Virus record (IMG/VR): IMGVR_UViG_3300050120_000279
Direction: 5' to 3' (one strand)
DNA: 64,000 bases
From: a virus
Lineage: Duplodnaviria; Heunggongvirae; Uroviricota; Caudoviricetes
Shown piece after piece: positions 1,717-57,741 of this stretch (position 1 is its first letter; each line of letters starts with the position of its first letter). Made by a program: the position numbers and the translations under genes. The notes below the pieces were generated by a model, which saw only the letters and a list, made by a program, of their open reading frames with translations, was not told the origin of the DNA and did not search any database.

Positions 1717-1804
1717 CGCCCGGTGGTGGAATTTGGCAGACACACCAGCTTGAGGTGCTGGCGCCCGTAAGGGCATGAGAGTTCGAGTCTCTTCTGGGCG
1801 ACCA
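1717..1804 (+). tRNA. tRNA-Leu (anticodon GAG), type II with long variable arm
   Basis: 7-bp acceptor stem CGCCCGG/CTGGGCG (one GU), anticodon stem CCAGC/GCTGG with loop TTGAGGT, variable arm GCCC-GTAA-GGGC, T-arm GAGAG-TTCGAGT-CTCTT, discriminator A and encoded CCA. Confidence 0.7.
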
Positions 1805-1818: not shown

Positions 1819-2142
1819 ATGGCTGAGAGCACTGACAAGGGTCCCAACTACAATTCGAATGGCTACCTCAGTCAAGAGGGGCGTGTGGCCGATGAGATGT
1901 CTCGGTCACGAACAGCTCTGCATGCTTCACACAAGCGCCTGCAGGACTTCGATAAGACTATCGCTACGGCCAAGAAGGTTATAGCAGACGGTGAGATCGA
2001 ACGGCCCGAACTAGTCCTCAAGTTTCAGAGAGCACAGAAGGAACACCAAGCGGCCCTCGATCATTACACCAACAACATCTGGATGGATATTCAGGTCAAG
2101 CCGAAGTTGCCACCAGCACCACCGGAGCCTTTGATCTCATGA
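1819..2142 (+). CDS. hypothetical protein
   Basis: ORF with AAGGAG RBS 8 nt upstream of the ATG. Confidence 0.45.
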   Translation: MAESTDKGPNYNSNGYLSQEGRVADEMSRSRTALHASHKRLQDFDKTIATAKKVIADGEIERPELVLKFQRAQKEHQAALDHYTNNIWMDIQVKPKLPPAPPEPLIS

Positions 2143-2687
2143 AAGTAGTCAATCTCTTTGCAGGACCTGGTGTGGGTAAATCCGTCATGGCCGCAGACAT
2201 CTTCTCGGTCATCAAGAAGAACGGCGGCAGCGCTGAGCTGGCTGGCGAATACGCCAAGGACATGGTCTACGAGAGTCGCATGAACATCCTGACGGATCAG
2301 GTGTACGTGCTGGCCAAGCAGAACCGTCGCCTTCATCGTCTTCGTGACAAGGTGGACTGGGTCATCTCTGACAGCCCTTTGCTGCTCTCCCCAGTGTACG
2401 CGCCGGCAGACTATTACCCGTCGTTCGTGGATCTGGCATTCGATGTTTTCGATAGCTATGAGAACATAAACCTGTTCTTGCAGCGGCCGGCCGATCGCAT
2501 CTATCAGGACGTAGGCAGGACTCAGAAGGCTGCTGAAGCCATTGAGTTCGACGATAAGATCAAGAACTTCCTCGATCAGCACAGGGTGCCGTACAAGGTT
2601 GTTCATCCTGGTAGAGACATCGTCGACTTCAACTTCCTCCGCATCTACTTGCTGTCGATGCTGGATTCCAATCTCGTCGCAGCATAA
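2139..2687 (+). CDS. P-loop NTPase (possible nucleotide/dNMP kinase-like)
   Basis: N-terminal Walker A GPGVGKS; ATGA overlap with upstream gene. Confidence 0.55.
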   Translation: MKVVNLFAGPGVGKSVMAADIFSVIKKNGGSAELAGEYAKDMVYESRMNILTDQVYVLAKQNRRLHRLRDKVDWVISDSPLLLSPVYAPADYYPSFVDLAFDVFDSYENINLFLQRPADRIYQDVGRTQKAAEAIEFDDKIKNFLDQHRVPYKVVHPGRDIVDFNFLRIYLLSMLDSNLVAA

Positions 2688-2764
2688 GCCTCTATAGCTC
2701 AGTGGACTAGAGCACGGAGCTTCTACCTCCGGTGTCGGGAGTTCGAATCTCTCTAGGGGCACCA
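2688..2764 (+). tRNA. tRNA-Arg (anticodon TCT)
   Basis: Acceptor GCCTCTA/TAGGGGC, D-arm TAGCTCAGTGGACTAGAGCA, anticodon stem CGGAG/CTCCG with loop CTTCTAC, T-loop GTTCGAATC, CCA encoded; starts immediately after the stop of the upstream gene. Confidence 0.8.
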
Positions 2765-3358: not shown

Positions 3359-3561
3359 TGATTAGCTCGTTCCATCGTCTTCATCTCCCCTCTGGAAGTG
3401 AAACGATTGGCCACTTCACATTGGTTCATCATGAGATGGGAGCTAATCCCCAGGTTATCTCAGCCGAAGGTTCTGACAACCATGTACAGGTTGAACTGCA
3501 CTTAGCTTTAGAGTGTGTAAACCGTTGGAATCATGGCAAGGACTGGAAATACTGGATCTAG
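3355..3561 (+). CDS. hypothetical protein
   Basis: 68 aa ORF, ATGA overlap with upstream gene. Confidence 0.35.
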   Translation: MMISSFHRLHLPSGSETIGHFTLVHHEMGANPQVISAEGSDNHVQVELHLALECVNRWNHGKDWKYWI

Positions 3562-3995
3562 GCAGCTTTGATCCAGCCAAACTGAATTGCGGTTCGTCTC
3601 CGATGACACTTGCAGCACCTGACATCGCACTTGGCAATCTCTTTCTTGATAGTGCTCCATGACATAACACTATTGACCATGTTCGAGATTGCTTTGGTCT
3701 TCTCAGATGGTTTGCGATGATCAAAGTCCAGGCAGATTGGATCTGTTTCGCCGCAGTCAATGCACGGATGTTCTTTCAGATATTCGAGAAGTTTAGTCCG
3801 ATTCTCTGTCTTATAGCGCTTGTTGTTTATCTGAACTTGAGCATTGTGTTTGATCTTGTTATCTTGATGCCACTGACTACTGTATTCAGCTTGGCATACT
3901 AGGCACTGTGAATAGTACCAGCCCTTTGCTTTGTTCTTGAATCGGAAGTTGCTAAGAGGCTGAGGTCCACATTTCGTACAGGTTCTATTAGTCAT
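3558..3995 (-). mobile_element. HNH homing endonuclease (His-Me finger) in an AT-rich island
   Basis: CIDCGETDPICLDFDHRKP and CDVRCCKCHRRRT zinc/HNH motifs; only minus-strand gene in a 56-kb plus-strand block; local AT content clearly above surroundings. Confidence 0.7.
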
Positions 3996-4050: not shown

Positions 4051-4127
4051 GCGCGATTAGTTCAGTGGTTAGAACGGGAGACTCTAAATCTCTGTCGTCG
4101 GGGGTTCGAATCCCTCATCGCGCACCA
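4051..4127 (+). tRNA. suppressor tRNA, anticodon CTA (reads UAG amber)
   Basis: Acceptor GCGCGAT/ATCGCGC, D-arm GTTC-AGTGGTTA-GAAC, anticodon stem GGAGA/TCTCT with loop CTCTAAA (U33, CUA, A37), T-arm GGGGG-TTCGAAT-CCCTC, discriminator A, CCA encoded. Confidence 0.6.
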
Positions 4128-4948: not shown

Positions 4949-5169
4949 TTGCTGATCTACATGAGAACGCTGAAGCCATTGATGCTTGTACAGACCCAAT
5001 CTGGGGTGTGAACGTCGCGTTCAATGTACAGGCAAAGACTCAGGATGAAGCATGGAACAAACTCTCCCGCTACCTGGGCAAGACTTTCAATGGCCATTAC
5101 GAGTCACTGGAATCGCCAGTCCTCCAGCCACACATTACTGCTGATGATTGCGAAACGCTCATCACATAA
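4945..5169 (+). CDS. hypothetical protein
   Basis: In-frame ATG within the longer Arg/Ser-rich ORF 4462..5169; ATGA overlap with upstream gene. Confidence 0.3.
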   Translation: MIADLHENAEAIDACTDPIWGVNVAFNVQAKTQDEAWNKLSRYLGKTFNGHYESLESPVLQPHITADDCETLIT

Positions 5170-5663
5170 TGCAAGTACTCTACTGTAGTGACGGCAGAGA
5201 AGTTCTAGTGGATGATGAAGACTATCCATTGTTGAAGCGGCATACTTGGACATCTGTTCCAGGACGCAATACCTGGTATGCGCTGACGACATTAGGGGCG
5301 AAGACAGTGATGATGCATTCCCTGATCAGTCCAATGCCGTCTCCGTTTCATACAGATCACTGGGACGGCAATGGTCTAAACAACCAGAAGCTAAACCTTC
5401 GCCGAGCGACCATCTCTGAGAATGCAATGAACAGGGGACCAGAAGCTGGCAAGTTGTACAAAGGAACTCATGCCTATAAAGGCAAGTTCCGCGCAAAGAT
5501 TCAATACGAAGGTAAGCAGGTCAATCTCGGTACATTTGTCACCGAGGAGGAAGCTGCAAAGAGGTACGACGAAGCTGCGCTGGAATTCCACGGCAAGTTT
5601 GCTTATCTCAATTTCCCTTTGTGTTTACCAGTCTCGGGAGCCTCGGCTCCTCAACACACGTAA
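5169..5663 (+). mobile_element. HNH homing endonuclease with C-terminal AP2 DNA-binding domain
   Basis: HTDHWDGNGLNNQKLNLR (HNH_3-type) followed by the AP2-like YKGKFRAKIQYEGKQVNLGTFVTEEEAAKRYDEAALEFHGKFAYLNF. Confidence 0.7.
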
Positions 5664-5689
5664 GAGAAACAGACTATTTGTTCTGTACA

Positions 5690-5723
5690 CAAGACCTCGG
5701 TTCGATTCCGAGCGGGTCCACCA
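5690..5723 (+). other. tRNA-like 3' fragment (T-arm CTCGG-TTCGATT-CCGAG, acceptor 3' strand CGGGTCC, A, CCA) with no matching 5' half
   Basis: Canonical GGTTCGATTCC T-loop and encoded CCA; no complementary 5' acceptor strand within 120 nt upstream. Confidence 0.3.
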
Positions 5724-5814
5724 TAGAGCCTACCGGCTGCACGTTTGTCGGGATGGACAACATCTTCGGATGTCCCGAATTCATTCTGCCGACACAGTGT
5801 CCGGGTGTGAGTGA

Positions 5815-6033
5815 TTGCATTCGGTAAGTTCTATTGTGGGCCCGTCATGGTTTCGATTGGGTATTGGGTGGATAGCTGACGTGTCGGATCGGAAGCCCAC
5901 GTTACGGGAAGCCAAGACTACAACTGCCAAAAGCAATGTTGTTGCCGGTATCAAAGCCAAGGTGCTGTCTTTCGGCGCGCGCGTAAGCGCTGCGACCGCG
6001 ATGCCCACCATGGGTTTTGCCGCTGCTGCCTAA
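5815..6033 (+). CDS. hypothetical small protein (hydrophobic segment, Ala-rich C-terminus)
   Basis: 72 aa ORF in a 450-bp gap; followed by hairpin GCCCCG-n7-CGGGGC at about 6080..6098. Confidence 0.25.
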   Translation: MHSVSSIVGPSWFRLGIGWIADVSDRKPTLREAKTTTAKSNVVAGIKAKVLSFGARVSAATAMPTMGFAAAA

Positions 6034-6116
6034 GAAACAGCAACAGAGTTAGAGCCACTCTGTCCCTCAGAGCTCTCAAGCCCCGTGTAAAGCGGGGCAC
6101 TTCTATTGGAGGCAGC

Positions 6117-6395
6117 ATGACAGATCAGCTGTATATAGTTCTGCATACTCATCGATTTGGCAGCAGCACCTATGTTGTCAAGAGCGATCGTATGCCAACG
6201 GAACTTCAAGTAATCCGTTGTTTGGAACTCGACTATGAAGGGACTCGGGATGAGTCTATTGCCATCAATCTCTTGGAATCAAATGAGCCAGCGATTCTGG
6301 ATTACATTCCTGGATTAGATGATGCTGACTTCCGTTCCGAGGTGGACTACAACGGGACGGCTCTTCGTGATCATGAGGACGACGTCGATGGCTAA
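6117..6395 (+). CDS. hypothetical protein
   Basis: 92 aa ORF, GGAGG RBS. Confidence 0.4.
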   Translation: MTDQLYIVLHTHRFGSSTYVVKSDRMPTELQVIRCLELDYEGTRDESIAINLLESNEPAILDYIPGLDDADFRSEVDYNGTALRDHEDDVDG

Positions 6396-6746: not shown

Positions 6747-7013
6747 ATGGGAGGATCTCTAATGCCAGATGAAACTGAAGCTATCCGCCGCGGCCTACTG
6801 GCTGCGATCAATGACGAGCCCCAGGATCGTACAGCCCTCGAGCAGTTCTACGGCAAAGTGTGGACGTTAGCCGAATTGGGCGAAGAGTTTGTCATCAAGC
6901 AGTTTGCAGCTCCCCTCATCGTAGTCAAGCGTTTATCAGACGGCGTGCTCGGAACGATGTACTTCCAGCACAGCCCACGTTTCTACTTCAACTTCAAGGA
7001 AGACACGAAGTAA
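6747..7013 (+). CDS. hypothetical protein
   Basis: 88 aa ORF after terminator; GGGAGG RBS. Confidence 0.4.
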   Translation: MGGSLMPDETEAIRRGLLAAINDEPQDRTALEQFYGKVWTLAELGEEFVIKQFAAPLIVVKRLSDGVLGTMYFQHSPRFYFNFKEDTK

Positions 7014-8281
7014 TGGCAATCATTTACTACGATGGCTGCGACGCATGCGCACAGCGAAAATGGCTGAACGATGATCGAACAGATCTGGAAGCAGCTAATC
7101 CTTCTGTGATCAAACATACCTGCATTCTAGGGCAGGAAAGAAAGGCTTCAACAAGTATGGAAACGCACCCAATTCTGTTTCACATGGGAGCCAATGGTCT
7201 CCAACAATGGCGTGTTTGGACAGTCGGCGCTACCATCTTCTCCGAACACGGTCTCGTCGACGGGGCCAAGGTCAGTCACGAGAAGGTTTGTGAGTCCAAG
7301 AACGTCGGTCGTTCCAATGAGACGACACCTGAAGCTCAAGCAGTAGCGGAAGCTGCCGCTCTGTGGGTTCACAAGCGTGAGCGCAAGTACACGGAAGACC
7401 CTGCCGGAACCAAGACGGACATCTTCTTGCCCATGCTGGCGCCGAATGACAAGTGGCCAGAGACGAAGAAGCACATCAAGTATCCTGCGTTTCTTCAGCC
7501 CAAGTTGGACGGTAATCGCTCCGTCGGCCGGCTTGATGGCGATGAGGCTGTGCTGACCTCCCGTGAGGGCAAGCCCCAGGACTTCCTACCGCATATCAAT
7601 GCGGAGCTAAAGGCCCTGGGTCTCAGCGAGGACTATTTCCTCGATGGCGAGCTCTACTGTCATGGACAGAGCCTGCAGACGATCAACAGCTGGATCAAGA
7701 AGGCTCGGCCGGAGTCGATGCAGATCAAGTACCACATCTATGATCTCCCCGTCGTCAATGGCAAGACGGACCTTTCCCTAGCCGATCGCCTGGCGAATCT
7801 GGACCAGCTCTTTCTTGACACCTTCGATGGCAAGTGCCAGTTCCTTGAACTCGTACCAACCGAGATCGTCAATAACGAAGAGGAAGTGATGACCTGGTTC
7901 AAGCACTACCGCGACCTTGGCTACGAGGGAGTGATGGTCAAGAACACGGCCGGAAAGTACAAACAGAAGAGTCGCTCGAAGGACGTCGCCAAGGTCAAGC
8001 CGTTCGAAGACGCCGAATTCAAGGTGGTTGGTTTCACGGGCATGGAAGTCTACAAGGACGAAGTGCTCTGGATCTGCGAGACCAAGGAAGGCAGGACCTT
8101 CAAGGTCACGCCGAATGGTTCACGGGAACAGCGCAAGGAATGGTTTGCCACGGCTGACCAGTACATCGGTCGGATCCTGACGGTGACGTTCATGGGTTAT
8201 ACCGAGGACGGTATCCCGAACATCGCCAAGGGCAAAGCTTTCCGCCTGGAGAGTGATCTTCCTAAAGAGAGCGCGGCGTGA
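7013..8281 (+). CDS. ATP-dependent DNA ligase
   Basis: Adenylation motif I KLDGNR, motif III FLDGELY, motif IV YEGVMVK, motif V AKVKPFED; TAATG overlap with upstream gene. Confidence 0.85.
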   Translation: MAIIYYDGCDACAQRKWLNDDRTDLEAANPSVIKHTCILGQERKASTSMETHPILFHMGANGLQQWRVWTVGATIFSEHGLVDGAKVSHEKVCESKNVGRSNETTPEAQAVAEAAALWVHKRERKYTEDPAGTKTDIFLPMLAPNDKWPETKKHIKYPAFLQPKLDGNRSVGRLDGDEAVLTSREGKPQDFLPHINAELKALGLSEDYFLDGELYCHGQSLQTINSWIKKARPESMQIKYHIYDLPVVNGKTDLSLADRLANLDQLFLDTFDGKCQFLELVPTEIVNNEEEVMTWFKHYRDLGYEGVMVKNTAGKYKQKSRSKDVAKVKPFEDAEFKVVGFTGMEVYKDEVLWICETKEGRTFKVTPNGSREQRKEWFATADQYIGRILTVTFMGYTEDGIPNIAKGKAFRLESDLPKESAA

Positions 8282-8487
8282 TCCAGCTTTGGCTGCGACG
8301 GATCGTTTCTCTACCCTTCCTGCTCATTACCCTGGCGGTATGGATCATCGGTGACTTGCTCCGGTTCTGCAGCTACTTGCTTATCGGAACTATCGAGTGG
8401 ATCGAAGACGGCGATTGGCCTGGATTCAGCTGGCGCAAAGCTACCCAGATGTCACGGATAGCTTTTCTCTGGTGGCCTAAATACTAA
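8278..8487 (+). CDS. small membrane protein (two predicted TM helices)
   Basis: 69 aa hydrophobic ORF; ATGA overlap with the ligase stop; contains the AGCTTTGGCTG motif at codons 3-6. Confidence 0.4.
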   Translation: MIQLWLRRIVSLPFLLITLAVWIIGDLLRFCSYLLIGTIEWIEDGDWPGFSWRKATQMSRIAFLWWPKY

Positions 8488-8495
8488 GGAGAACT

Positions 8496-8897
8496 ATGTC
8501 ACAAAGTGCTGGCGCTGCTGGCGTCTACGGCATCCTGCTGAATGATCTCGACTCCGCGGAAGTAGAGTTGATCGTCAAGAAGCTGGATGCCGCCCAGCTC
8601 GATTACACAATGGAAAACGAGTGGGATGAACTTGAGAATGGTCCTGAAGATGTCGAGGCAATCAAGCTGCTTCGAGCAGAACTGGATGCCTACTTCATCG
8701 GTAAGGGTGTTGTGATTCCGGAGAAGGCCAAGATTCATTGGACTGCCTTTGATGACGAGCGCCCTGCGTCTTGTGCCACCGATGGTGAGCAGTGGGTTCT
8801 TGGCTTTGGTCTTTTCACACTACCCAGTGAGTACCCGCAGCTGGATAAGACATTCACTGATTTATCTGCCTGGTACACCTGGGCTTGGATGGGATAG
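8496..8897 (+). CDS. hypothetical protein
   Basis: 133 aa ORF with GGAGAA RBS; ends with TAG. Confidence 0.4.
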   Translation: MSQSAGAAGVYGILLNDLDSAEVELIVKKLDAAQLDYTMENEWDELENGPEDVEAIKLLRAELDAYFIGKGVVIPEKAKIHWTAFDDERPASCATDGEQWVLGFGLFTLPSEYPQLDKTFTDLSAWYTWAWMG

Positions 8898-8903
8898 GGC
8901 ACC

Positions 8904-9551
8904 ATGGGAATCATCGAACGGATCCTCTTGAAGCTACTTCGTCATGAGGACATCACAGATAAGGCGGGGGTTCTTTACCTCCGCCGATTCTTCCTCATCA
9001 ACAGAGACAAGAAAGTCACCTGCCATGACGGTACAGTGCAGGAAAAGCGTTCCTGGCATGTCTACCTCCACAAGTTCTATCGCGGCGACACAGACAGGCA
9101 TCTCCATGACCATCCCTGGCCCTTCAAGAGCCTGATGCTGGCCGGAGGATACTGGGAGCACCGCGCGAACCCTGATCACGCCCGTTGGACTGCTCTGCAG
9201 GCTGAGGGTGGCATCGGTGACATGTGCCGGCTGATCGAGATCGATCTCATGGGTGGTACGGCTGGCCTTTATGACCCGCTGCTGTCCGAAGTCAACGAGA
9301 TCTACTGGCGTGCAGGTCAGCGCAAGAAGCCTGAACCTCCGCTGACGATCCGCAAGTGGTATCGACCTGGGTCATTCATCGGCCGCGGCGCCCGCTGGAC
9401 GCATCGCGTCGAGCTTCCTCAGTGCAAGTTTGCCTGGACCCTGGTCTTCACTGGAGTCAAGGAACGTGACTGGGGCTTCCACACGGAAAACGGCTGGTGC
9501 TTCTGGAAGAACTACTCCGAAGGCGTCTGCGCTGTAGGTACTGAGCAATAG
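8904..9551 (+). CDS. hypothetical protein (contains HLHDHPW His-rich motif)
   Basis: 215 aa ORF. Confidence 0.4.
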   Translation: MGIIERILLKLLRHEDITDKAGVLYLRRFFLINRDKKVTCHDGTVQEKRSWHVYLHKFYRGDTDRHLHDHPWPFKSLMLAGGYWEHRANPDHARWTALQAEGGIGDMCRLIEIDLMGGTAGLYDPLLSEVNEIYWRAGQRKKPEPPLTIRKWYRPGSFIGRGARWTHRVELPQCKFAWTLVFTGVKERDWGFHTENGWCFWKNYSEGVCAVGTEQ

Positions 9552-9563
9552 AAAGGCACGACG

Positions 9564-10808
9564 ATGTTCAATGATCCGGAATCAGACGCCCACATGGCGA
9601 TCATTACCCTGGAGAACGCAGGCTTCAAAGCTCATGCCATTGGAGGCTGTGTCCGGGATTTGATCCTGGGGCGGAAACCCAAGGATTATGACCTCGTCAC
9701 GAATGCTACGCCGGAAGAGATCATCAAACTGTTCCCTAAGACGGTCAATGTCGGCGCTGCTTTCGGTGTCATTGTAGCCGTTCTGGAGCATTCTCAGGTT
9801 GAGATCGCCACCTACCGTGCAGACGGAGTCTACTCGGATGGCCGTCGTCCGGACACCGTGATCTATGCCAAGACCCTCGAAGAAGATGTCAGACGCAGGG
9901 ACTTCACCATGAATGGCATTGCGGCCAGCGCCCTTGGCAATGGCGTCCACATGGACTCATGGACTAAGGACTATGTCCATGGGTACAAGGACATCGAAGC
10001 GAAGATCATTCGAACGATTGGCGATCCGGTTGAACGGTTCACCGAGGATCCTCTCCGCATGCTGCGTGCCATCAGGTTCTCGGCCCAGCTGGGGTTCACC
10101 ATCGAGAAGAAGACTTTTGCCGCTATCCAGAAGTGTGCCAAGCTCATCCAGAAGGTTAGTGCTGAACGGGTTCGGACAGAACTGATCAGCCTTCTCACCT
10201 CAGATGAACCAGGTATAGGTATCGCCAATCTTCTGCGGTCGGGGTTGCTGAACTATCGTATGCAGTGGCTCCTGGACCTCAAGTTCCCGCGTCTAATCAC
10301 ACTGCTGGAGCTTGTCAAGCACTCCGAACAGGATAGATATCCCTCAGGTTTCATGCTCGGAGTGTTTCTGGAGTCATTGAAGCCGGCAATGCTCGGTGTG
10401 GCCATCAAGGATCTGAAACTGTCCTATGGCGAAGAGGCTTGCATCAAGAAGATGTGGGACTGGCCCATGTTGCAGGATCTTCGATACGCTGCGGCACCGT
10501 GGCGTCCTCGTGTGAAACGTGCCATGCGCGAGCCGTACTTTGCTCAGGCGATGCGACTCTTTGAGTTGGATCAACTGAGTGGTATCGGACTCAATCCAGA
10601 ACCATTCCAAGAGGTCAATGACCTGGTGACGATTTGCAAACAGGAAGGTATTTATCCTGCAGCTTTCGTGGACGGTGATGACCTGATGGAGTATGGATAC
10701 GAGGGCAAAGCCATCGGCGACGCACTCTACCTGCTCGAATCCGCCCAGCTGGATGGCGCCATCGACAGTAAAGACCAAGCACTACGGTACATCGGAGCAA
10801 TCAAATGA
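9564..10808 (+). CDS. cca: tRNA nucleotidyltransferase (CCA-adding enzyme / poly(A) polymerase head-domain family)
   Basis: GGCVRDLILGRKPKDYDLVTNATPEE matches the class II nucleotidyltransferase head motif; RDF..NG region conserved. Confidence 0.8.
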   Translation: MFNDPESDAHMAIITLENAGFKAHAIGGCVRDLILGRKPKDYDLVTNATPEEIIKLFPKTVNVGAAFGVIVAVLEHSQVEIATYRADGVYSDGRRPDTVIYAKTLEEDVRRRDFTMNGIAASALGNGVHMDSWTKDYVHGYKDIEAKIIRTIGDPVERFTEDPLRMLRAIRFSAQLGFTIEKKTFAAIQKCAKLIQKVSAERVRTELISLLTSDEPGIGIANLLRSGLLNYRMQWLLDLKFPRLITLLELVKHSEQDRYPSGFMLGVFLESLKPAMLGVAIKDLKLSYGEEACIKKMWDWPMLQDLRYAAAPWRPRVKRAMREPYFAQAMRLFELDQLSGIGLNPEPFQEVNDLVTICKQEGIYPAAFVDGDDLMEYGYEGKAIGDALYLLESAQLDGAIDSKDQALRYIGAIK

Positions 10809-11308
10809 GCGCACCACGAACCATTGAGTACTTCGAAGGCAGGTTCTTCTTCCTGTCGAACTTCTTCCCCATCCTGCTTGAATACGATGGCGCGGTCTAC
10901 CCGACCAATGAGCATGCGTTTCAGGCAGCGAAGACAATCGATCCGTTGGAGCGTATTGTGTTCCAGGATCCAAAGTCCTCGCCTTCGGATGTGAAGAAGC
11001 TCGGCCGAGCCATCACCCTCCGGCATGATTGGGAACAGGTCAAGAACTCCATCATGAAGGAGCAGCTGTTGGAGAAGTTCTCCGACAGGCACCCCATCTA
11101 TCTGAAGGGATTGCTCAACACCGAGGACCGCACTCTTGTTGAGGGTAACCTCTGGCATGACAACATTTGGGGCAACTGCCATTGCATGGACAATCTCACT
11201 GTCCGCGTTCCATTCGGATCAAAGGCATTCTGTGTTAGTCCTGGACAGAACCGACTGGGTCTGGCTCTGATGGAAGTCAGAGCAGAACGTCTCGCATGCC
11301 AGTCCTAG
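10805..11308 (+). CDS. NADAR (YbiA-like) domain protein
   Basis: EYFEGRFFFLSNFFP...YPTNEHAFQAAK matches the NADAR/DUF1768 signature; ATGA overlap with cca. Confidence 0.75.
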   Translation: MSAPRTIEYFEGRFFFLSNFFPILLEYDGAVYPTNEHAFQAAKTIDPLERIVFQDPKSSPSDVKKLGRAITLRHDWEQVKNSIMKEQLLEKFSDRHPIYLKGLLNTEDRTLVEGNLWHDNIWGNCHCMDNLTVRVPFGSKAFCVSPGQNRLGLALMEVRAERLACQS

Positions 11309-11796
11309 CAGTCATCGGGTCGCGATCATTCAACTACCAGGACCGAGTCTGGGAATATCTGGACAAGGTCCTGGAGAAGACCGAGAACCTAAGTCTGGTC
11401 TCGGGCGCCTGCCCTCAAGGCGCTGATGCCCTCGCAGAATCCTGGGCAAAGAGGAGGGGTGTTCCTATCCTGTTGTATCCGGCCGACTGGTCGAAGGGTA
11501 AGGGCGCCGGCTTTGCACGTAACCAGAAGATCGTCAAGGCAGCTGATGTCGTGGTGTGTTTCTGGGATGGCACGAGCAAGGGAACTGTGGATTCAATCGA
11601 ACGTGCATGGAGATTGGGGATTAAGGTCATGGTTTCGACCCCTCAAAACCCAAAGATGGTGCTCGTCAAAGACTTCATGGAACTTGCGCAGCGTGCTTGT
11701 TTGCACCCCGGAATGAGGGACTGGTCTACAGGAACTTCGACCTTCTGTCCGGACTGTAATCACGTGTTCAACGTACAAGACAACCCAACTCAGTAG
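11296..11796 (+). CDS. DUF2493 (YspA-like SLOG family) Rossmann-fold protein
   Basis: VIGSRSF...SGACPQGADALAESWAKRRGV...YPADWSKGKGAGFARNQKIV matches the DUF2493 consensus. Confidence 0.65.
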   Translation: MPVLAVIGSRSFNYQDRVWEYLDKVLEKTENLSLVSGACPQGADALAESWAKRRGVPILLYPADWSKGKGAGFARNQKIVKAADVVVCFWDGTSKGTVDSIERAWRLGIKVMVSTPQNPKMVLVKDFMELAQRACLHPGMRDWSTGTSTFCPDCNHVFNVQDNPTQ

Positions 11797-11806
11797 GGAG
11801 CAGCAT

Positions 11807-12250
11807 TTGTTGAACGACAACACTTTAGAAGAAGTTACACCGAGTTCTTTCGCTATGGCGGAAGAGCGGTTCTATGTAATTGTTCCCGAGACTGTCCAAT
11901 CTGACATGACAAGTCACGATATGGAGTCCGGAAGACTCATGGCTCAGTCGTTTCATATAGGCAGAGTCGTTGAGTATCGAAGAGCCATGGCTGGAGCCCA
12001 GTCACAGGACATCACAACGATCGTTCTCGCGGTACGCAATACCCTGGAACTGAACAAAGTGATGACTGAGCTGGTAGGACAGCAGTTAGTTGATGACGGT
12101 AAAGGGAAGCCTCACTTCGCCGTCTCGCTATATCGTGACCACAACCCCCAGGTCTACCAGACGGACAGCCGTGTACTGACTGCTCTCTGTGTAGGTCCGG
12201 TTATCCGTTCCGCCGTCGAACACATCCTGGGACACCTGGAGACGTACTAG
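11807..12250 (+). CDS. peptidyl-tRNA hydrolase, PTH2 family
   Basis: MAQSFH..., ITTIVLAV, VSLYRDHNPQVYQTDSRVLTALCVGPV and C-terminal LGHLETY align to the PTH2 core (VAAQCSHA...[23 protein letters not shown]...TGHLKLY). Confidence 0.7.
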   Translation: MLNDNTLEEVTPSSFAMAEERFYVIVPETVQSDMTSHDMESGRLMAQSFHIGRVVEYRRAMAGAQSQDITTIVLAVRNTLELNKVMTELVGQQLVDDGKGKPHFAVSLYRDHNPQVYQTDSRVLTALCVGPVIRSAVEHILGHLETY

Positions 12251-12287
12251 CTTTGGCTGGACTTCCCCTGCACTGGATCCTAAAGAG

Positions 12288-12713
12288 ATGAAACGACACA
12301 CCTGTTTTGCCCTGCTGTTCTTGTCTCTCTCAGGGTTTGCCGCCATCCCCTCTCAAGGGGTTGTTGGTATGGCCACTTGGTATGGAAAACAACACCATGG
12401 GAGAAAGACCAGCAGTGGTCGCCGATTCAACGAACATGAGCTCACTGCCGCGTCTCCTACGTTGCCCTTCGGAACCCGCGTTCACGTCACCTTCCTGAAG
12501 ACTGGAAGGTCCGTTGACGTCGAGATTACCGATCGAGGTCCCTTCGGTAAGCACCGAATCCTCGATCTTTCTGAGGAAGCAGCGGATGAGATCGGACTCA
12601 AGCCCTACGGCGTAGGACGGATCAAATTAGAGGTCATCAATGAGCGCCAGCTTTCAGCAAATCACTCTTACCCTCGTCGTGAAGGAAGAGGACGTCGAAG
12701 CAGTGAAACGTGA
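12288..12713 (+). CDS. secreted RlpA-like double-psi beta-barrel protein with signal peptide
   Basis: N-terminal signal peptide; ATWYG..GRKTSSGRRFNEHELTAASPTLPFGTRVHVT..GRSVDVEITDRGP matches the RlpA/DPBB motif. Confidence 0.65.
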   Translation: MKRHTCFALLFLSLSGFAAIPSQGVVGMATWYGKQHHGRKTSSGRRFNEHELTAASPTLPFGTRVHVTFLKTGRSVDVEITDRGPFGKHRILDLSEEAADEIGLKPYGVGRIKLEVINERQLSANHSYPRREGRGRRSSET

Positions 12714-12834
12714 ACTGAACCAGTCCCTCGATTGTATCGGGGAAGAGTATCAGGTCCACAACGACAAGATCGAGGAAGAGGACTGCGATAGCCCTGAGTC
12801 CGAAGATCTGTACGAGTTCGAAGACGCGGCGTAA
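12640..12834 (+). CDS. small acidic protein
   Basis: 64 aa, Glu/Asp-rich C-terminal half; starts inside the 3' end of the RlpA-like gene. Confidence 0.3.
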   Translation: MSASFQQITLTLVVKEEDVEAVKRELNQSLDCIGEEYQVHNDKIEEEDCDSPESEDLYEFEDAA

Positions 12835-12886
12835 CAACCGCAAGCCGTAACAATCAACCGGACAAGTTCCGCTAGGAGAAAGAATC

Positions 12887-13375
12887 ATGGCATCAGTCGC
12901 AAGCATCACCCTGTTGGGCAACCTCGGAAAAGACCCAGTCCTCACCAAGGGTTCCGATGTATCGAAGTCATACTGCGATCTGTCGATTGCAGTTGAGATC
13001 TATGACGGCAAAGACGCCGCCGGCAAAGGCCAGTACAAGACCAACTGGTGGAACCCGCGTGTCTTCGGCCAGCAGGCGGAGTACATTGCCGGTGCAGCCA
13101 AGAAGGGCAACGCTGTTCTCGTGCTCGGCGATCTCGTCATCAATGAGAAGGACGGCAAGCAGTACAACAACGTCCGCGCCACCACTGTCCGCCTCGCTAC
13201 TCGCAACGAGAAGGGTTCTGGGGATCAAGCACAGCCCCAGGGCGAACAGACTCAGCAGACCAGCTCGGCGCCTGTGGCGCAGCAGGCAAGCGCTCCTGCC
13301 ACGGCCGCAGCTCTCCCGCCGGCTACTGTCCATGCCACCACGATGGAAGCAGTCGACGAAGACCTGCCGTTCTAA
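12887..13375 (+). CDS. ssb: single-stranded DNA-binding protein (SSB)
   Basis: OB-fold N-terminus (ITLLGNLGKDP), Gln/Pro-rich linker and acidic C-terminal tail ...DEDLPF. Confidence 0.8.
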   Translation: MASVASITLLGNLGKDPVLTKGSDVSKSYCDLSIAVEIYDGKDAAGKGQYKTNWWNPRVFGQQAEYIAGAAKKGNAVLVLGDLVINEKDGKQYNNVRATTVRLATRNEKGSGDQAQPQGEQTQQTSSAPVAQQASAPATAAALPPATVHATTMEAVDEDLPF

Positions 13376-14298: not shown

Positions 14299-14547
14299 AT
14301 GTACTTCAAGAAGAAGACTGGTGAGCCCAAACGGCATGTAACTCGCGGCGGGGATACATTGGCACGCTTCATCGTCATAGAGCTGGCCGAAACCTTTGAC
14401 GAAGATATGAGTCAGGATGAACAGATCGAAGAAGCACAGCGTGCCCTTCAATCGGCGATCGTTGATCTCGAAGATGTGATCACTGCCCTTGGTTCCCCTG
14501 CAATGTTAGCTCAAGTCTTAGCGTGTAAGAAGGATAAGAAGTCATGA
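14299..14547 (+). CDS. hypothetical protein
   Basis: Internal ATG of ORF 14179..14547 downstream of the RNase H stop. Confidence 0.3.
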   Translation: MYFKKKTGEPKRHVTRGGDTLARFIVIELAETFDEDMSQDEQIEEAQRALQSAIVDLEDVITALGSPAMLAQVLACKKDKKS

Positions 14548-14741
14548 AGACATTCTCCGTAACCTTTACTTTTCGTGAGCTTCCCAGTCCCCATATGTAC
14601 CAGTCGACGACAGTCGACGCCAGCAGTATTGGCACTGCGGTGCGCCGCGCGGAGGAGATTATCCGTGCTAGGCCACATGTCAAAGGACGACGTATCACGC
14701 AGTGCGAGATTGATGTGAGCGAGTCTGGTGCTAGTACGTAG
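14544..14741 (+). CDS. hypothetical protein
   Basis: 65 aa, ATGA overlap with upstream gene; TAG stop. Confidence 0.35.
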   Translation: MKTFSVTFTFRELPSPHMYQSTTVDASSIGTAVRRAEEIIRARPHVKGRRITQCEIDVSESGAST

Positions 14742-22010: not shown

Positions 22011-23065
22011 CGACCAGAAGAAACCTGAGTGTTGAACTGCGGCCTCAGCGCCTATCCGAGTTGGTTGGCCAGGAGGGTGTCGTTGCCAGTCTTCGACGCA
22101 ATTTCGGTGCCGGCAGCGTGCCCATTGGTATCCTGCTGACCGGCTCCTTTGGTCAGGGTAAAACGACGATCGCTCGAATTCTGGGTATGGCTTTCAACTG
22201 CACTCACCAGGTCCAGTTTGGTGAGACCTGTGTCGATTGTCTCGACAATGCAGACATGTTCAACATCTTTGAGCTGAACTGTGCGGACTTGACGACCATC
22301 GACCAGATGAAAGAGTTCCTGCCCAAACTCTTACCGTACCCGAACTTTGGTAAGTATCGGATCATCATCCTCGATGAAGCACAGCAGATGTCGGACAAGG
22401 CTCAGCAGATCTTGCTGACCCCGCTCGAGGAGCTGGACTCCCATAACATCTTTATCTTCTGCACATCGAACCCGGCAAAGATCAATCAGGCTGTGAAGGA
22501 CAGGTGTAAGCCGTTCGCTATTCCTGATCTGAAACCGGCCGGCGTGACTGCTCTGGTCAACAGGACCGTGGAGCTGGCTGTCTCCCGCTATGGAATGCCT
22601 TCCATCCCGATGGATCCTCTCATCGAGATGCTGCATACCGCTCAGGTGTTCAGCTCGCGCAATGTAGTCATGGCTGTCGAGATGTTCCTTGAAGGGTCGA
22701 CGGCGGCCCAGGCGATCGTCATCAAGGACGCGGGCGAGGTAGACTACTTCTCCCTCAATGCCGCTGTAGGGCAGGGTAAGTGGGAACCAGCTCGTAAGAT
22801 TCTCCAGATGGCCAAGCCGGCGGATGGTGCCCAGGTGAAGATGCGTCTCTCAGCATTCTTCCGGTACAAGTTGCTGGAAACCCCTGCTGGGAGCCGGGCC
22901 GATCTTCTGTCACTCTTTATAAGGGAGTTGGGAGATGCGGCCGCTGTCGAGTCTGGTCTTGAATTATCCCTTGTCGTCAGTGCGGTCTACCGGATCTGCC
23001 AGACGATCGAGAACGTGAAGAGCAAGACTTCCACTAACAATCCAGTGTTGATCAAGGCGGCGTAA
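22007..23065 (+). CDS. clamp loader AAA+ ATPase subunit (DnaX/RFC-like)
   Basis: Walker A GILLTGSFGQGKTT, Walker B IIILDEAQQMS, sensor region; located just downstream of the clamp gene. Confidence 0.65.
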   Translation: MTTRRNLSVELRPQRLSELVGQEGVVASLRRNFGAGSVPIGILLTGSFGQGKTTIARILGMAFNCTHQVQFGETCVDCLDNADMFNIFELNCADLTTIDQMKEFLPKLLPYPNFGKYRIIILDEAQQMSDKAQQILLTPLEELDSHNIFIFCTSNPAKINQAVKDRCKPFAIPDLKPAGVTALVNRTVELAVSRYGMPSIPMDPLIEMLHTAQVFSSRNVVMAVEMFLEGSTAAQAIVIKDAGEVDYFSLNAAVGQGKWEPARKILQMAKPADGAQVKMRLSAFFRYKLLETPAGSRADLLSLFIRELGDAAAVESGLELSLVVSAVYRICQTIENVKSKTSTNNPVLIKAA

Positions 23066-23991
23066 TGAAAGTACTTACAGACGAGCAGCTGACTCTCATG
23101 CAACAGCACGCAGACCAGCCGATTCCGCCGTTTGCGCCCCATCCTGATCGGCACTACCGGGCGGTGGACACCTACCTGGAGAGCTGGCCGAATGATCTTC
23201 GGTCACTCTCGGTAGCTCAGATCGATATCCCACTGACCCTGGAGGAGTGCACGATCCTGGGTTCGCAGATCGCGGACTTCGGACAGTCGTTTGCACCCGA
23301 ACCCCTACCAGCACATGATCTGATTGCGAAGGTGCAAACAGCTTCCGAGAAGATGCCTGGTCCGTTCTTCGTCCGCCTGGGTTCACGAAGCCCCAAGGAT
23401 GCCCTTTACTGGTTCAAGGACGAGATGAAGGTCGACAATGGAGAGGAAGCTCTCCAACTGCTGACCGCTAGCTCCGAACGTGTCTGGGAAGATCTCCGGA
23501 TCGGCCTGCACTTCGGGTATGCCTCGCACATCTTCCTTCGCCAGTGGACGGAGATGCCTGAATGGTCCGAGTTCCGGTGCTTCATGAAGGGCCGGAAGCT
23601 CATTGCTGTCTCGCAGTACTACTATCGCCAGGCGCACCGTGAACTGATCGAGGACTACGACGGCATCAAGTGGGCCATCGAACAGTTCTTCACCCGTCAG
23701 TTCAAGCATCTTTCACATCTGGATGACGTGGTCTTTGATGTCTTCGTCAAGCAGAAGACCAATGCCGGCACGTTCAATAGCGGTGTCTGTGGCGTGCCTC
23801 CTTGGCGGGCCTGGGAGATCAAGCTCCTCGAGATCAACCCATACTGGAACCTGTGCGATCCTTGCCTCTTCAACTGGAGTGAGCTGGATGCACTAGCCGA
23901 AGGCGGAACTGAATACCAGTTCCGTTTCATCGAGCAGACTGAGCAGTTGATAGGCCACAAGTATTCGGTCGTCAAAGCTGACCAGCTCTAA
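23065..23991 (+). CDS. Cdc123/D123-like ATP-grasp family protein (candidate)
   Basis: FFVRLGSRSPKDA and SEFRCFMKGRKLIAVSQYYY match the two hallmark motifs of the Cdc123 ATP-grasp clade. Confidence 0.5.
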   Translation: MKVLTDEQLTLMQQHADQPIPPFAPHPDRHYRAVDTYLESWPNDLRSLSVAQIDIPLTLEECTILGSQIADFGQSFAPEPLPAHDLIAKVQTASEKMPGPFFVRLGSRSPKDALYWFKDEMKVDNGEEALQLLTASSERVWEDLRIGLHFGYASHIFLRQWTEMPEWSEFRCFMKGRKLIAVSQYYYRQAHRELIEDYDGIKWAIEQFFTRQFKHLSHLDDVVFDVFVKQKTNAGTFNSGVCGVPPWRAWEIKLLEINPYWNLCDPCLFNWSELDALAEGGTEYQFRFIEQTEQLIGHKYSVVKADQL

Positions 23992-29307: not shown

Positions 29308-29787
29308 ATGGAATATCTAGCACGCGAAGATGAGTACCGCCCGCAAGAGGACGTAGCCGAGATGATGGTCATCTTCGGCCAGCAAGTCCGTACCTTGCCC
29401 GACATGATCATGGACCCTAAAGAGCGCTTGCTCACAGCGAACCTGGTCCTGGAAGAAGCCCTCGAGTTCTGTGTAGCTATGGGCTTCAACGCTGTCGAAC
29501 AGGAAGATGGTTCGATTGGCCTGGAACTCCATGGTCGAGACCCTGATCTGGTTGGAGCTTGTGATGCGATCGGCGATATGCTCGTCGTGGATTACGGAGC
29601 TGCTAACCGGCTGGGTGTCAAAGCGAAGGACCTCTTTCATGAGGTGGACCGCTCGAACAAGACCAAGTTCCACATTGATGGGGAAGGCAATCGCTACGTG
29701 AAGCGCCGCGAGTCTGATGGCAAGGTGATCAAGCCGGACCACTATTCGCCTGCCGATATCGAGGGTGTTCTCTGTCGCGCTAGGTAG
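29308..29787 (+). CDS. MazG-like nucleoside triphosphate pyrophosphohydrolase (candidate)
   Basis: All-alpha EExxE/LELHG..D..GD.L pattern and size typical of phage MazG. Confidence 0.5.
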   Translation: MEYLAREDEYRPQEDVAEMMVIFGQQVRTLPDMIMDPKERLLTANLVLEEALEFCVAMGFNAVEQEDGSIGLELHGRDPDLVGACDAIGDMLVVDYGAANRLGVKAKDLFHEVDRSNKTKFHIDGEGNRYVKRRESDGKVIKPDHYSPADIEGVLCRAR

Positions 29788-29848: not shown

Positions 29849-30598
29849 ATGCACAGCGGATTCTTCATCACGATCGAGGGCATCGACGGAATAGGCAAGT
29901 CTACCCAGATCAAACTCCTCGTGGATGCCATCAAGTCGGCAGGCCAGGCGGTATATCTAACCAAGGAACCTGGTGACAAGTTCACTGGCTCCATCATTGG
30001 CGCACCTATCCGGCATATGCTGTTCACCGATCCCGGTACGCAAGCTTTGGGTCCTGGCATTGGAGATCTACTTTTCCTCGCCGATCACATGCAGAATGTC
30101 TACGAAATCAAGAAGTATCTGGAGACCGGAGTTACGGTCATCTCAGATCGCTATGCTGATTCCCAGTTCGCCTATGCGGCCAGTCCTACTAAGAAGGCTC
30201 CTGCCTGGGCCAACAAGCTATTCGCAGAGCACTACGGGGTGATTCCCGACCTTACCCTCCTGATGGTCGCTCGTGGACCGAGTGCGCTATCTGATCCGTT
30301 TGCAGCAGAGGATATCGGATGGGCTTTACAGCGTGCTAATGCGCGCCGCGGCGTCGAAGCCGGTAAGCAAGACGGCAAAGCGTGGAATGATATCGAGGCC
30401 CAGCGAACCATTCAGAATGCGTATCTAACAGGACTGACTGGCAAAGCTCGCACTGCGATCATCAACATCTGGGATAGCAGCTCTGCCGAGACCGTCCATG
30501 AATTGATCATGGCTGCTATTCTCCTGGCACAGTCCCGTCACGGCGAAGGCAAGCAGCCCAACCTTCCACTTGTGGAATTGGTAGCCGAAGCGGCATAG
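29849..30598 (+). CDS. tmk: thymidylate kinase
   Basis: FITIEGIDGIGKSTQ P-loop, DRY motif (ISDRYADS), lid region. Confidence 0.8.
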   Translation: MHSGFFITIEGIDGIGKSTQIKLLVDAIKSAGQAVYLTKEPGDKFTGSIIGAPIRHMLFTDPGTQALGPGIGDLLFLADHMQNVYEIKKYLETGVTVISDRYADSQFAYAASPTKKAPAWANKLFAEHYGVIPDLTLLMVARGPSALSDPFAAEDIGWALQRANARRGVEAGKQDGKAWNDIEAQRTIQNAYLTGLTGKARTAIINIWDSSSAETVHELIMAAILLAQSRHGEGKQPNLPLVELVAEAA

Positions 30599-31941
30599 TG
30601 GCTCGTAGAGGACAGGTCTTCGAGCCGGTAGCGACCGCGCTCGAAGATCACGTACCGGTGAACTATAAAGTGATCGGTACCGCGGACTGGTTTGCCTCAC
30701 GGTTTGAACCAGATGCGGTTGATGAAGCCGACAAGATCGTTATCAGCAATGGTAGCGACCTGGCTCCCCACAAAGAATGGATCAGCCGGCAGAAGGCCAT
30801 CGGTGCGGATACCGAGACCACCGGCAGGATCGTCAAGGGCAACAAAGGCTACTCGATGAACCCCGTAAATGAAGGGACTCGACTAGTGCTGCTGCAACTC
30901 GGCACTGAAGAACGCACTTACCTGATTGATCCTGATCTCGTGGAGGAGTTCCGTGAACCTTTGGAGTCCACCAAGATCCTGAAGATCCTACAGAACGCTC
31001 TGTATGACTTCAAGTGGTTGATGACCAAGAAGAACGTCCACATGACTAGGATCTACGACACCATGCTGGCTGAGCAGGTACGCACTGCCGGCTTGATGGG
31101 TGTCAAGGTAGGCCTGGCGGATATGGCTCGCAAGTATGACCCCTATTACCTGATCTCGAAGGCCGTTCGCGGTCTCTTCGTAGAGCTGAATGAGGGGAAG
31201 ATGAGCCGGCCAATGGTGTACTACGCGGCTCGCGATATCCCGTTGATGTTCCCCATATTTCGGGCACAGCTCAAGGATCTGAAGGCCAATGGCCTGGAGA
31301 GCACCGCGCAGCTGGAGTTCGACTGCATCCCCTGTACGGCTGAGATGGAACTGGGCGGGGTCTTCTTGAAGACTGCACCTTTGGACCTGCTCATTCAGTA
31401 TTGGCAGGACAAGCAGGAGGCTATGGGCAATCAGATCCTCGCCATGTACAGCGAGGAGTTGAAGAACAGAGGTATCGGCAGTTCCTCTTTGATTCCCGAC
31501 CTCGATGAAGCATTTGACCTTGGCTCTGCCGCACAGAAACTCGTAGCCCTCCGAGCACTGGGCTTCGAGCTCGATGATACGAAGCGCGAAACCTTGATGG
31601 AACTCGATCACCCCATAGCGAAACTGCTTGGTGAGTATTCGAACGTCACCAAGATGACGTCTACGTACGGCGACAACATGCGACAGAAGATCAACGAGTT
31701 CACAGGCATGTGGCACCCACGATTCGCGCAGATGGGCTCCGGTGAGATGGAAGCTGCTTCTGGACGCGACAACACGACTACGACGGCGACCGGCCGTTAC
31801 GTTTCAGACGCACAGCAGTTCCCGCGCAAGACGGAGCGGTATGCCAATGAGAAGGACCAGGTCCTCCTGGGCCTTGTGGCAGATCACTTCAAAGCGCAGA
31901 TCGCTGATGTCGAGAAACGGGATAAGGACATAGCAGCATGA
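30598..31941 (+). CDS. family A DNA polymerase, N-terminal part (3'-5' exonuclease plus thumb region)
   Basis: Exo I GADTETTG, Exo III YAARDIPLMFPIF; ends before polymerase motif A. Confidence 0.8.
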   Translation: MARRGQVFEPVATALEDHVPVNYKVIGTADWFASRFEPDAVDEADKIVISNGSDLAPHKEWISRQKAIGADTETTGRIVKGNKGYSMNPVNEGTRLVLLQLGTEERTYLIDPDLVEEFREPLESTKILKILQNALYDFKWLMTKKNVHMTRIYDTMLAEQVRTAGLMGVKVGLADMARKYDPYYLISKAVRGLFVELNEGKMSRPMVYYAARDIPLMFPIFRAQLKDLKANGLESTAQLEFDCIPCTAEMELGGVFLKTAPLDLLIQYWQDKQEAMGNQILAMYSEELKNRGIGSSSLIPDLDEAFDLGSAAQKLVALRALGFELDDTKRETLMELDHPIAKLLGEYSNVTKMTSTYGDNMRQKINEFTGMWHPRFAQMGSGEMEAASGRDNTTTTATGRYVSDAQQFPRKTERYANEKDQVLLGLVADHFKAQIADVEKRDKDIAA

Positions 31942-40329: not shown

Positions 40330-40602
40330 ATGCGTTCAGCAGATGACCTTATTACCGTTAAGGCAACGATCACCCGACGACTGACCCTGGACCGTGAACG
40401 CCTTGAAAGCGATCCGGTCTGGAGTCAAGTCTCGCAGCAACTTGGCTATGTGACTGGCGATCCTCTCACCGAGGAGCTCGTGAGCACCTACCTCAATCAT
40501 TACATCGTGCGTGATCAGTTCCCGCACCAGACACCGACCACTAATGGGCCGGGTGACATTGATGCAGTACAGCTGGAGGTAACATGGCCGGAATCGCAGT
40601 AG
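40330..40602 (+). CDS. hypothetical protein
   Basis: 90 aa ORF. Confidence 0.35.
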   Translation: MRSADDLITVKATITRRLTLDRERLESDPVWSQVSQQLGYVTGDPLTEELVSTYLNHYIVRDQFPHQTPTTNGPGDIDAVQLEVTWPESQ

Positions 40603-57700: not shown

Positions 57701-57741
57701 TATAGTTTCATCTGCTCCACTTTCCCAGGTCTACCAGTACC

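Follow-up and report, generated by a model that had tools for sequence, protein, structure and literature searches.

A predicted amber-suppressor tRNA conserved in an uncultured phage lineage whose inspected sequence follows the standard genetic code

The subject of this analysis is a phage gene for a transfer RNA (tRNA) with the anticodon CUA, which would decode the amber codon UAG. It lies at 4051..4127 on the plus strand of a 64,000-nucleotide stretch of DNA, here called the window, from a virus of the Caudoviricetes (IMG/VR record IMGVR_UViG_3300050120_000279). The window corresponds to the part of a large phage genome devoted to replication and nucleotide metabolism, and GC content is 54%. 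ARAGORN calls four RNA genes in it, namely a tRNA-Leu(GAG), a tRNA-Arg(TCT), the CUA tRNA, and a permuted transfer-messenger RNA (tmRNA). Phage suppressor tRNAs are usually taken as markers of stop-codon reassignment, and automatic pipelines that meet one may switch the genetic code or flag the genome.

Structure, conservation, and scaffold of the CUA tRNA

Judged by its sequence, the CUA tRNA is a canonical bacterial-type elongator tRNA and a predicted amber suppressor. ARAGORN reports 77 nucleotides with the anticodon, cta, at position 34 (4084..4086), and the Rfam model RF00005 scores the gene at 64.9 bits (E-value 7.8e-12; gathering score 29), with an alignment that spans model positions 1-71 of 71 and zero non-canonical pairs flagged. 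The acceptor stem has 7 base pairs (GCGCGAU/AUCGCGC), the D stem has 4 (GUUC/GAAC) and carries a standard D loop with G18G19, and the anticodon stem has 5 (GGAGA/UCUCU), including a G27.U43 pair. The 7-nucleotide anticodon loop reads C32 U33 C34 U35 A36 A37 A38, and the 13-nucleotide core of the anticodon arm, AGACTCTAAATCT at 4079..4091 on the plus strand, contains the CTA of 4084..4086. The variable region, GUCGUC, is 6 nucleotides long, one insert relative to the Rfam model. It is followed by the T arm, GGGGG-UUCGAAU-CCCUC, with the T loop GTTCGAAT. The 3' end consists of the discriminator A73 and an encoded CCA, and the base preceding the gene, read from the sequence, is A rather than the G-1 of His-type tRNAs. 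The Rfam alignment and the sequence together contain the conserved tRNA core, which comprises U8, A14, G18G19, U33, a purine at 37, and the T loop GTTCGAAT/GTTCRA. Thermodynamic folding by itself gives no cloverleaf (z -2.1), which is discounted because such failures are common for tRNAs and because the covariance-model score and the covariation described below outweigh it. The original prediction had described a canonical cloverleaf with U33 and A37 flanking CUA and a 6-nucleotide variable loop, and both descriptions hold. It had also proposed ARAGORN as a check, and the program calls the anticodon CTA, not a sense anticodon.

ARAGORN prints the name tRNA-Pyl for this gene, a label that reflects the anticodon alone. 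The hallmarks of tRNA-Pyl are a variable loop of 3 nucleotides, a short D loop that lacks G18G19, and an anticodon stem of 6 base pairs, accompanied by pylS/pylBCD genes. The window tRNA has a D loop with GG, a 5-base-pair anticodon stem, and a 6-nucleotide variable region, and no pylS or pylBCD-like match was found among the approximately 80 window open reading frames (ORFs) scanned. No release factor (RF2 included), aminoacyl-tRNA synthetase, or TilS turned up in the same scan.

The CUA tRNA is kept by selection and is an apparently functional gene, not a decaying copy, because its homologue in a relative combines compensatory stem changes with an unchanged loop and because a wider family shows covariation. 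The relative, L011 (ENA assembly ERZ27254046), has a DNA ligase 80% identical to that of the window phage. Its CUA tRNA lies at 2206..2280, beside a tRNA-Lys(UUU) and downstream of a tRNA-Arg(UCU). Between the window and L011, compensatory changes affect all four stems: G3:C70 becomes U:A, U7:A66 becomes G:C, U11:A24 becomes C:G, A31:U39 becomes C:G, and G50:U64 becomes U:A. The two tRNAs agree in their CUCUAAA loop, G1:C72, and A73.

The wider family was gathered with a search pattern that fixed the anticodon arm together with some of the T arm and placed no constraint on the acceptor or D stem. The pattern matches 20 metagenome loci, with the anticodon CUA invariant across the members, and it has zero matches in GTDB (185,579 species genomes of bacteria and archaea). 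Several of the loci belong to phage-style arrays with 7 to 39 tRNAs, and one has a permuted tmRNA as its neighbor. Covariation was computed on 15 distinct CUA tRNA sequences, with 500 shuffles as a control. Cloverleaf cells are paired at 96.5% in the family compared with 78% in the shuffles, and cells with both sides changed number 58 compared with 17.6, a value that 0/500 shuffles reach. The covariation score is 0.482 compared with 0.124 for shuffled alignments (again 0/500), and six of the seven acceptor-stem pairs covary. The window tRNA and that of L011 combine G1:C72 with A73, as do 13/15 family members.

Position pair 31:39 varies within the family. It is A31:U39 in the window tRNA and C31:G39 in L011, and a C31-A39 mismatch closes the anticodon stem in 8/15 members (alignment A2, columns 33 and 41). 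Some family members may sit in genuinely recoded genomes, because one metagenome locus, L016, carries two different CUA tRNAs 660 nucleotides apart (5037..5110 and 5773..5846), and because another, L026 (Ga0272443_10000117, 147,644 bp), shows the largest gain in long ORFs with TAG as a sense codon (0.58 to 0.77).

The body of the CUA tRNA most resembles tRNA-Ile2. The nearest annotated sense tRNAs in BLAST are of the CAU-anticodon tRNA-Ile2 type, annotated as tRNA-Ile (cat) in E. coli and as tRNA-Met in Pectobacterium phage Pappous, although these matches are modest (77-79% identity) and the E-value of the E. coli match is weak. Shared features are the D arm, G27.U43, A31:U39, C4:G69, C32 U33 C34, A37 A38, and A73. 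The CUA tRNA differs from the E. coli ileX/ileY-type in having UA, not AU, at positions 35 and 36, and with the anticodon CUA instead of CAU it is not a tRNA-Ile2. A tRNA-His of an Erythrobacter phage is equally similar.

The anticodon arm is comparable to those of E. coli supF and of engineered amber suppressors with an optimized "extended anticodon"; with supF it shares an identical 13-nucleotide core, AGACUCUAAAUCU (A29-G30-A31 / C32 U33 C34 U35 A36 A37 A38 / U39-C40-U41). This core is that of E. coli tRNA-Tyr, AGA-CTGTAAA-TCT, with G34 replaced by C (the tRNA-Tyr gene sequence was verified), which is the supF mutation. Of the two, supF belongs to class II, has a long variable arm, and is aminoacylated by TyrRS, whereas the CUA tRNA is class I with a 6-nucleotide variable region. 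The A36A37A38 sequence is a context for the i6A37 modification.

Identity elements narrow the amino acids that the tRNA might carry. The bacterial tRNA-Gln identity set, as known for E. coli GlnRS, is a weak U1:A72 pair with G73. Under identity rules, G1:C72 with A73 is incompatible with Gln, Trp, Glu, and His types, and a short variable arm is incompatible with Tyr, Leu, and Ser types. The first four types are excluded because the CUA tRNA has G1:C72 and A73, and the last three because its variable arm is short. Its scaffold is thus not Gln-like, and it lacks the identity of a supE-type tRNA-Gln. Gln is the amino acid that TAG-recoded phages usually assign to the codon. In E. coli, CUA derivatives of A73 tRNAs, Ile2 among them, were reportedly charged mostly with Lys or Gln in work by Normanly, Kleina and colleagues in 1990, and lysine is by this analogy the best guess for the inserted amino acid.

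UAG as a stop codon in early and late genes

The inspected sequence amounts to 83 kb, made up of the 64-kb window and 19 kb of tail and baseplate genes at a locus denoted L007. Outside it lie at least 34 kb of the same Logan contig, SRR35930614_532 (88,212 bp), and the sequence to the left of the window, where capsid, terminase, and lysis genes are expected. In the window, a purpose-made gene model with 100 genes has 46 TAA, 28 TGA, and 26 TAG stops. Because this gene caller is crude and missed or shortened at least two genes (12288..12713, DPBB_1, and 39266..39922, a radical SAM activase), its counts were checked against independent pipeline gene calls on copies of the phage in Logan assemblies, which give 22 TAA, 17 TGA, and 14 TAG (n = 53). 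TAG makes up 32-42% of stops in the early regions of relatives. Long open frames cover 97-100% of the sequence under the standard code, and the gain in coverage from reading TAG as sense is about that from reading TAA as sense and less than that from reading TGA as sense. The original prediction had stated that UAG still works as a stop within the window, and its three examples do end called genes, at 14544..14741, 29308..29787, and 40584..42563.

The late genes give a similar picture. L007 extends 19 kb past the right end of the window into a tail and baseplate module (L007 1..18866) of 15 tightly packed ORFs, including ones of 819+, 577, 552, 922, 672, 491, and 420 amino acids, with 922 the longest complete ORF. 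All are uninterrupted, and they end in 13 TAA and 2 TAG. Three relatives, L008, L032, and L037, add about 60 kb with 48 late genes, likewise long uninterrupted ORFs, for which the stops are 13 TAA and 2 TAG, 14 TAA and 1 TGA, and 13 TAA and 5 TAG, respectively. No in-frame TAG was found in the conserved genes of the window or in the 63 tail and baseplate genes of the four loci. The suggestion that recoded genes would lie elsewhere in the genome therefore finds no support in the 19-kb tail and baseplate module or in the three relatives, the capsid, terminase, and lysis genes being outside this scope. TAG works as a stop in late genes too, because the ORFs are uninterrupted and 9/63 end in TAG. 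Taken as a whole, the sequence points to no new genetic code and to the standard code in every part inspected.

The late genes have a stop-codon bias of their own. TAA ends 53/63 of them, TAG 9/63, and TGA 1/63, and the near absence of TGA differs from the 28% in early genes of the window (Fisher p ~1e-4, first three loci). An apparent avoidance of TAG, with 4/45 over three loci, looked significant and faded when L037 (5/18 TAG) was added. The robust bias is a preference for TAA with avoidance of TGA, not specific to TAG, as expected for highly expressed genes.

Candidate targets for readthrough were sought among genes that follow a TAG in the same frame. The genes 8496..8897, 8904..9551, and 9564..10808, the last of which encodes the CCA-adding enzyme, lie in one frame and are parted only by TAG codons. 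A readthrough fusion over 8496..10808 was rejected, as homologues of the middle gene stand alone in relatives, the L011 homologue ends in TAA, and in a further relative, L010, the gene just before the CCA-adding enzyme is in a different frame and overlaps it. Other same-frame TAG pairs are the C-terminus of PolA with 33597..34337, UvsX with 45656..46222, and 39943 with 40330. The PolA and UvsX cases were rejected as well, since in each the TAG comes after the end of a complete polymerase or UvsX domain and nothing downstream of it matched a domain. Readthrough in place of the tail-chaperone frameshift was likewise set aside, as the small TAG-ending late ORFs of L007 and L008 are out of frame with the next ORF. 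Same-frame junctions are no commoner behind TAG stops (5/26) than behind TAA stops (6/46), and there is no conserved readthrough fusion.

Readthrough would extend proteins by a median of 31 codons after TAG, compared with 15 after TAA and 14 after TGA, and backup stops downstream of TAG are not enriched in the window genes. The phage gives no sign of being adapted to its own suppressor. Suppression is probably weak, partial, or limited in time, because TAG ends about one quarter of the genes and nearby backup stops are missing.

Neighboring genes and the phage lineage

The two sense tRNAs that the original prediction had placed nearby are both found by ARAGORN. The tRNA-Leu(GAG) lies at 1717..1804 (+; Rfam 43.3 bits) and the tRNA-Arg(TCT) at 2688..2764 (+; Rfam 63.2 bits). 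The latter starts one base past the stop of an AAA_28 gene (2139..2687), with the same layout in L011 (943..947). Because the tRNA starts right behind the stop in both phages, the arrangement implies that tRNA-Arg would be co-transcribed with the AAA_28 gene and processed out of the mRNA.

The permuted, two-piece tmRNA called by ARAGORN lies at 5631..6124 (+) and scores 76.1 bits against Rfam RF04321. Its predicted tag ends ...PTMGFAAAA. Against the beta_tmRNA model it reaches 36.7 bits, which is sub-threshold, and L028, one of the metagenome loci with a CUA tRNA, has a betaproteobacterial-type tmRNA at 3583..3935. The window tmRNA is conserved in L011 (2771..3127, 81 bits) and L010 (382..677, 51 bits). 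The CUA tRNA is separated from a tmRNA by <1.6 kb in the window, <0.5 kb in L011, and <0.7 kb in L028.

An ORF for an HNH homing endonuclease at 3558..3995 on the minus strand (phrog_2255, 2e-30) abuts the CUA tRNA upstream. It is an independent insertion, because no HNH ORF stands beside the CUA tRNA of L011. A second HNH ORF, with weak HNH_3 and AP2 matches, lies beside the tmRNA at 5310..5663 (+), and the RNA-gene region appears to be a target of mobile endonuclease insertions. No theta or hepatitis delta virus (HDV)-like ribozyme was detected next to the CUA tRNA at E <= 1.

Further downstream lie the two protein-coding genes that the original prediction had named. The CCA-adding enzyme, or tRNA nucleotidyltransferase, that had been proposed for the region is well supported at 9564..10808 (+), with matches to phrog_2244 (1.9e-58), PF01743 PolyA_pol, and PF12627 PolyA_pol_RNAbd. 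The peptidyl-tRNA hydrolase proposed alongside it fared less well. The ORF exists at 11807..12250 (+), ending in TAG, and its family assignment is weak, as PF01981 aligns over positions 7-115 of its 115 with a score of 18.7 bits against a cut-off of 23, and no PDB sequence matches the product. It is best described as a putative, weakly PTH2-like protein. The order ligase, CCA-adding enzyme, NADAR, SLOG/YAcAr, 147-amino-acid PTH2-like protein, DPBB_1 (RlpA-like), and SSB, at 7013..13375 of the window, is kept in those relatives whose sequence is fuller (L010, L011, and the P0043 contig), down to 59% ligase identity. This block looks like a tRNA-repair or nucleic acid-repair module or an anti-defense module.

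Among the genes identified in the window are those for an ATP-dependent DNA ligase, NADAR, SLOG/YAcAr, SSB, a RecD-like helicase, a sliding clamp and clamp loader, both ribonucleotide reductase subunits, thymidylate kinase, a split family A DNA polymerase, a UvsX-like recombinase, a primase-helicase, and RuvC. The polymerase is divided between two ORFs that match phrog_17 at 651-991 and 995-1211, with an ORF of 144 amino acids and no family match between them (30598..31941, 31938..32372, and 32376..33329). Among the replication genes is also a D123/Cdc123-family protein (PF07065, 3e-30) at 23065..23991, from a family that is mostly eukaryotic and unusual for a phage. Between the replication and tail modules, 57056..63085 holds a plasmid-like maintenance and regulation cluster, in which Pfam labels a response regulator with GerE (57056..57700), RepA_C (59275..60207, minus strand), a ParA/MipZ-type ATPase (61225..61905, minus strand), and a TetR-family protein (62489..63085). 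The cluster may indicate a phage-plasmid lifestyle.

Copies of the same phage occur in Logan assemblies of SRR35930614 (L001, L002, and an 88,212-bp contig behind L003 and L007) and in an 85,452-bp JGI contig. By overlap arithmetic the genome is at least 117 kb. Among the 50,697 phage records of INPHARED, positions 1-12,000 of the window have no DNA match, a baseplate protein has no match, and the RecD-like helicase has a best identity of at most 34%. IMG/VR gives no close relative when compared with the CCA-adding enzyme or the tRNA, and its ligases are only 33% identical. A scan of GTDB with a profile of the baseplate protein gives matches of only 35-37%, in metagenome-assembled genomes labeled Ignavibacteriaceae and Acidobacteriaceae. 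By these comparisons the phage belongs to an uncultured environmental lineage without a close cultured relative.

Possible role of the predicted suppressor and comparison with known phages

The best explanation, of moderate confidence, is that the CUA tRNA is functional, is charged by the host, and partially suppresses amber codons in a phage that uses the standard code. It would be transcribed together with genes of the early or middle class and matured in the same way as the neighboring phage tRNAs, its CCA being already encoded. Charging is proposed to depend on a host synthetase because no phage synthetase was found among the scanned ORFs, and the A36-A37-A38 sequence is likely a substrate of the host i6A37 modification. 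The charged tRNA would compete with release factor 1 at UAG. Suppression would probably be partial or limited in time, with no wholesale codon reassignment. The leading candidates for its benefit are the decoding of one or a few in-frame UAGs outside the inspected sequence, or a state in which the suppressor has been acquired before recoding, as proposed by Borges et al. (bioRxiv 10.1101/2021.08.26.457843).

Several points weigh against this reading. A conserved suppressor without a visible target is hard to rationalize when 26-42% of early genes end in TAG, because efficient suppression would lengthen many of the phage's own proteins. No clear parent sense tRNA was found among 111 tRNAs from phage arrays, and the likeness of the anticodon and T arms within the family is partly built in by the search pattern. 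The standard code is claimed for the inspected part, with at least 34 kb lying outside it.

It is possible, though unlikely, that the phage is partially recoded in the manner of phages with genetic code 15, with the suppressor decoding in-frame UAGs in the capsid, terminase, or lysis genes beyond the 83 kb. The suppressor would then time late or lysis expression, a role put forward for crAss-like, Lak, and Agate phages. The clear selection on the CUA anticodon is most simply explained by an essential in-frame UAG, the heavy use of TAA in late genes fits, and a clean replication region proves little, since recoded phages keep their replication genes in the standard code. At least 34 kb of SRR35930614_532, moreover, lies outside the inspected sequence. 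What speaks against recoding is that none of the 15 tail and baseplate genes of the phage or the 48 of its relatives contains an in-frame TAG, while some of them end in one. In addition, TAG is undepleted in early genes at a GC content of 54%, which is the opposite of the precursor state, the scaffold with G1:C72 and A73 is not Gln-like, and RF2 is missing from the scanned ORFs.

A purpose directed at the host or its defenses has also been considered. In its fullest form, which is doubtful, a class I suppressor family with A73, an Ile2-like body, and a supF-like arm would be selected in standard-code phages with frequent TAG stops, not for codon reassignment but to manipulate termination at UAG against the host or its defenses, possibly acting with the tmRNA and two nearby gene products, the CCA-adding enzyme and the PTH2-like protein. 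RelE-type toxins prefer UAG, and tmRNA rescues ribosomes. The suppressor might occupy A-site UAGs that such toxins cleave, or perturb host termination, as part of a translation-rescue module formed with the tmRNA, the CCA-adding enzyme, and the PTH2-like protein, a version that is improbable. The closeness of the CUA tRNA and the tmRNA in the window, L011, and L028 accords with it, as do the conserved block of ligase, CCA-adding enzyme, NADAR, SLOG, and PTH2-like genes and the lack of TAG avoidance in the phage's own genes, which fits a readthrough that is tolerated or useful. This evidence is purely circumstantial, however. RNA genes cluster in phages anyway, as in Erythrobacter phage vB_EliS-L02, which has 32 tRNAs and a tmRNA and no suppressor, no tmRNA is seen close to the CUA tRNA at most of the 20 family loci, and no toxin or defense target has been identified.

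It is very improbable that the tRNA does something other than suppress amber codons in vivo, either because host TilS converts C34 to lysidine, which pairs with A, so that UAA is read, or because the tRNA is a decoy or has another non-translational role. The resemblance to CAU tRNA-Ile2-type tRNAs in G27.U43, A31:U39, C4:G69, and A73 is what suggests lysidine. Descent from tRNA-Ile2 is not established, as the phage tRNA-His is equally similar, and the arm matches that of a supF-type amber suppressor as well. An ochre suppressor would also be far more damaging, with TAA ending 46% of window genes and ~84% of late genes. A pseudogene, a mutated sense tRNA, or a tRNA-Pyl, suggested by the printed label and the slightly unusual variable loop, is scarcely credible and is effectively refuted by the perfect cloverleaf with its Rfam score, the conserved anticodon loop and compensatory changes in L011, the covariation in the family, and the absence of the Pyl hallmarks.

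Read as a partial suppressor charged by the host, the CUA tRNA fits a known kind of case, that of phages with standard-code genomes that carry a suppressor tRNA. It adds to a small set of such phages an example in which TAG is common in both early and tail genes. What sets it apart from the known cases are the GC content of 54%, the abundant TAG stops, the non-Gln scaffold, and the demonstrated conservation across the lineage. If the remaining late genes prove clean, the lineage would suit asking what use a suppressor is to a phage that has no need of it, and whether the suppressor is a first step toward recoding.

The closest precedent is the Stenotrophomonas siphophage Summit, a cultured phage of 95.7 kb that uses the standard code and has a predicted amber suppressor for which no target was found and whose purpose was declared unknown; TAG ends 12/148 of its genes (PMC9022506). 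Both phages have a CUA tRNA, normal coding density, amber as a stop, no in-frame downstream fusion, and no phage synthetase. The window phage differs from Summit in that it belongs to an uncultured lineage, in that TAG ends ~26% of its genes, and in that conservation of the tRNA across relatives is shown.

The other known carriers of suppressor tRNAs are the TAG-recoded (code 15) crAss-like, Lak, and Agate phages (bioRxiv 10.1101/2021.08.26.457843; PMC9523058; PMC7886860). In recoded phages, replication genes use the standard code and structural and lysis genes are recoded; Borges et al. described standard-code relatives that had gained a suppressor, proposed this as a step before recoding, and modeled the stop codon as first depleted in low-GC genomes (bioRxiv 10.1101/2021.08.26.457843). 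The window phage shares with the code-15 phages a CUA tRNA among its early genes and replication genes in the standard code. The hallmarks of code 15, which are in-frame TAG, genes fragmented under code 11, and a rare TAG stop, are all missing from the inspected sequence. In contrast to the code-15 phages, the window phage comes from an environmental metagenome lineage, keeps 83 kb clear of in-frame TAG with TAG undepleted at a GC content of 54%, and carries a tRNA that is not Gln-like, with no RF2 among the scanned ORFs and no theta or HDV-like ribozyme beside the tRNA.

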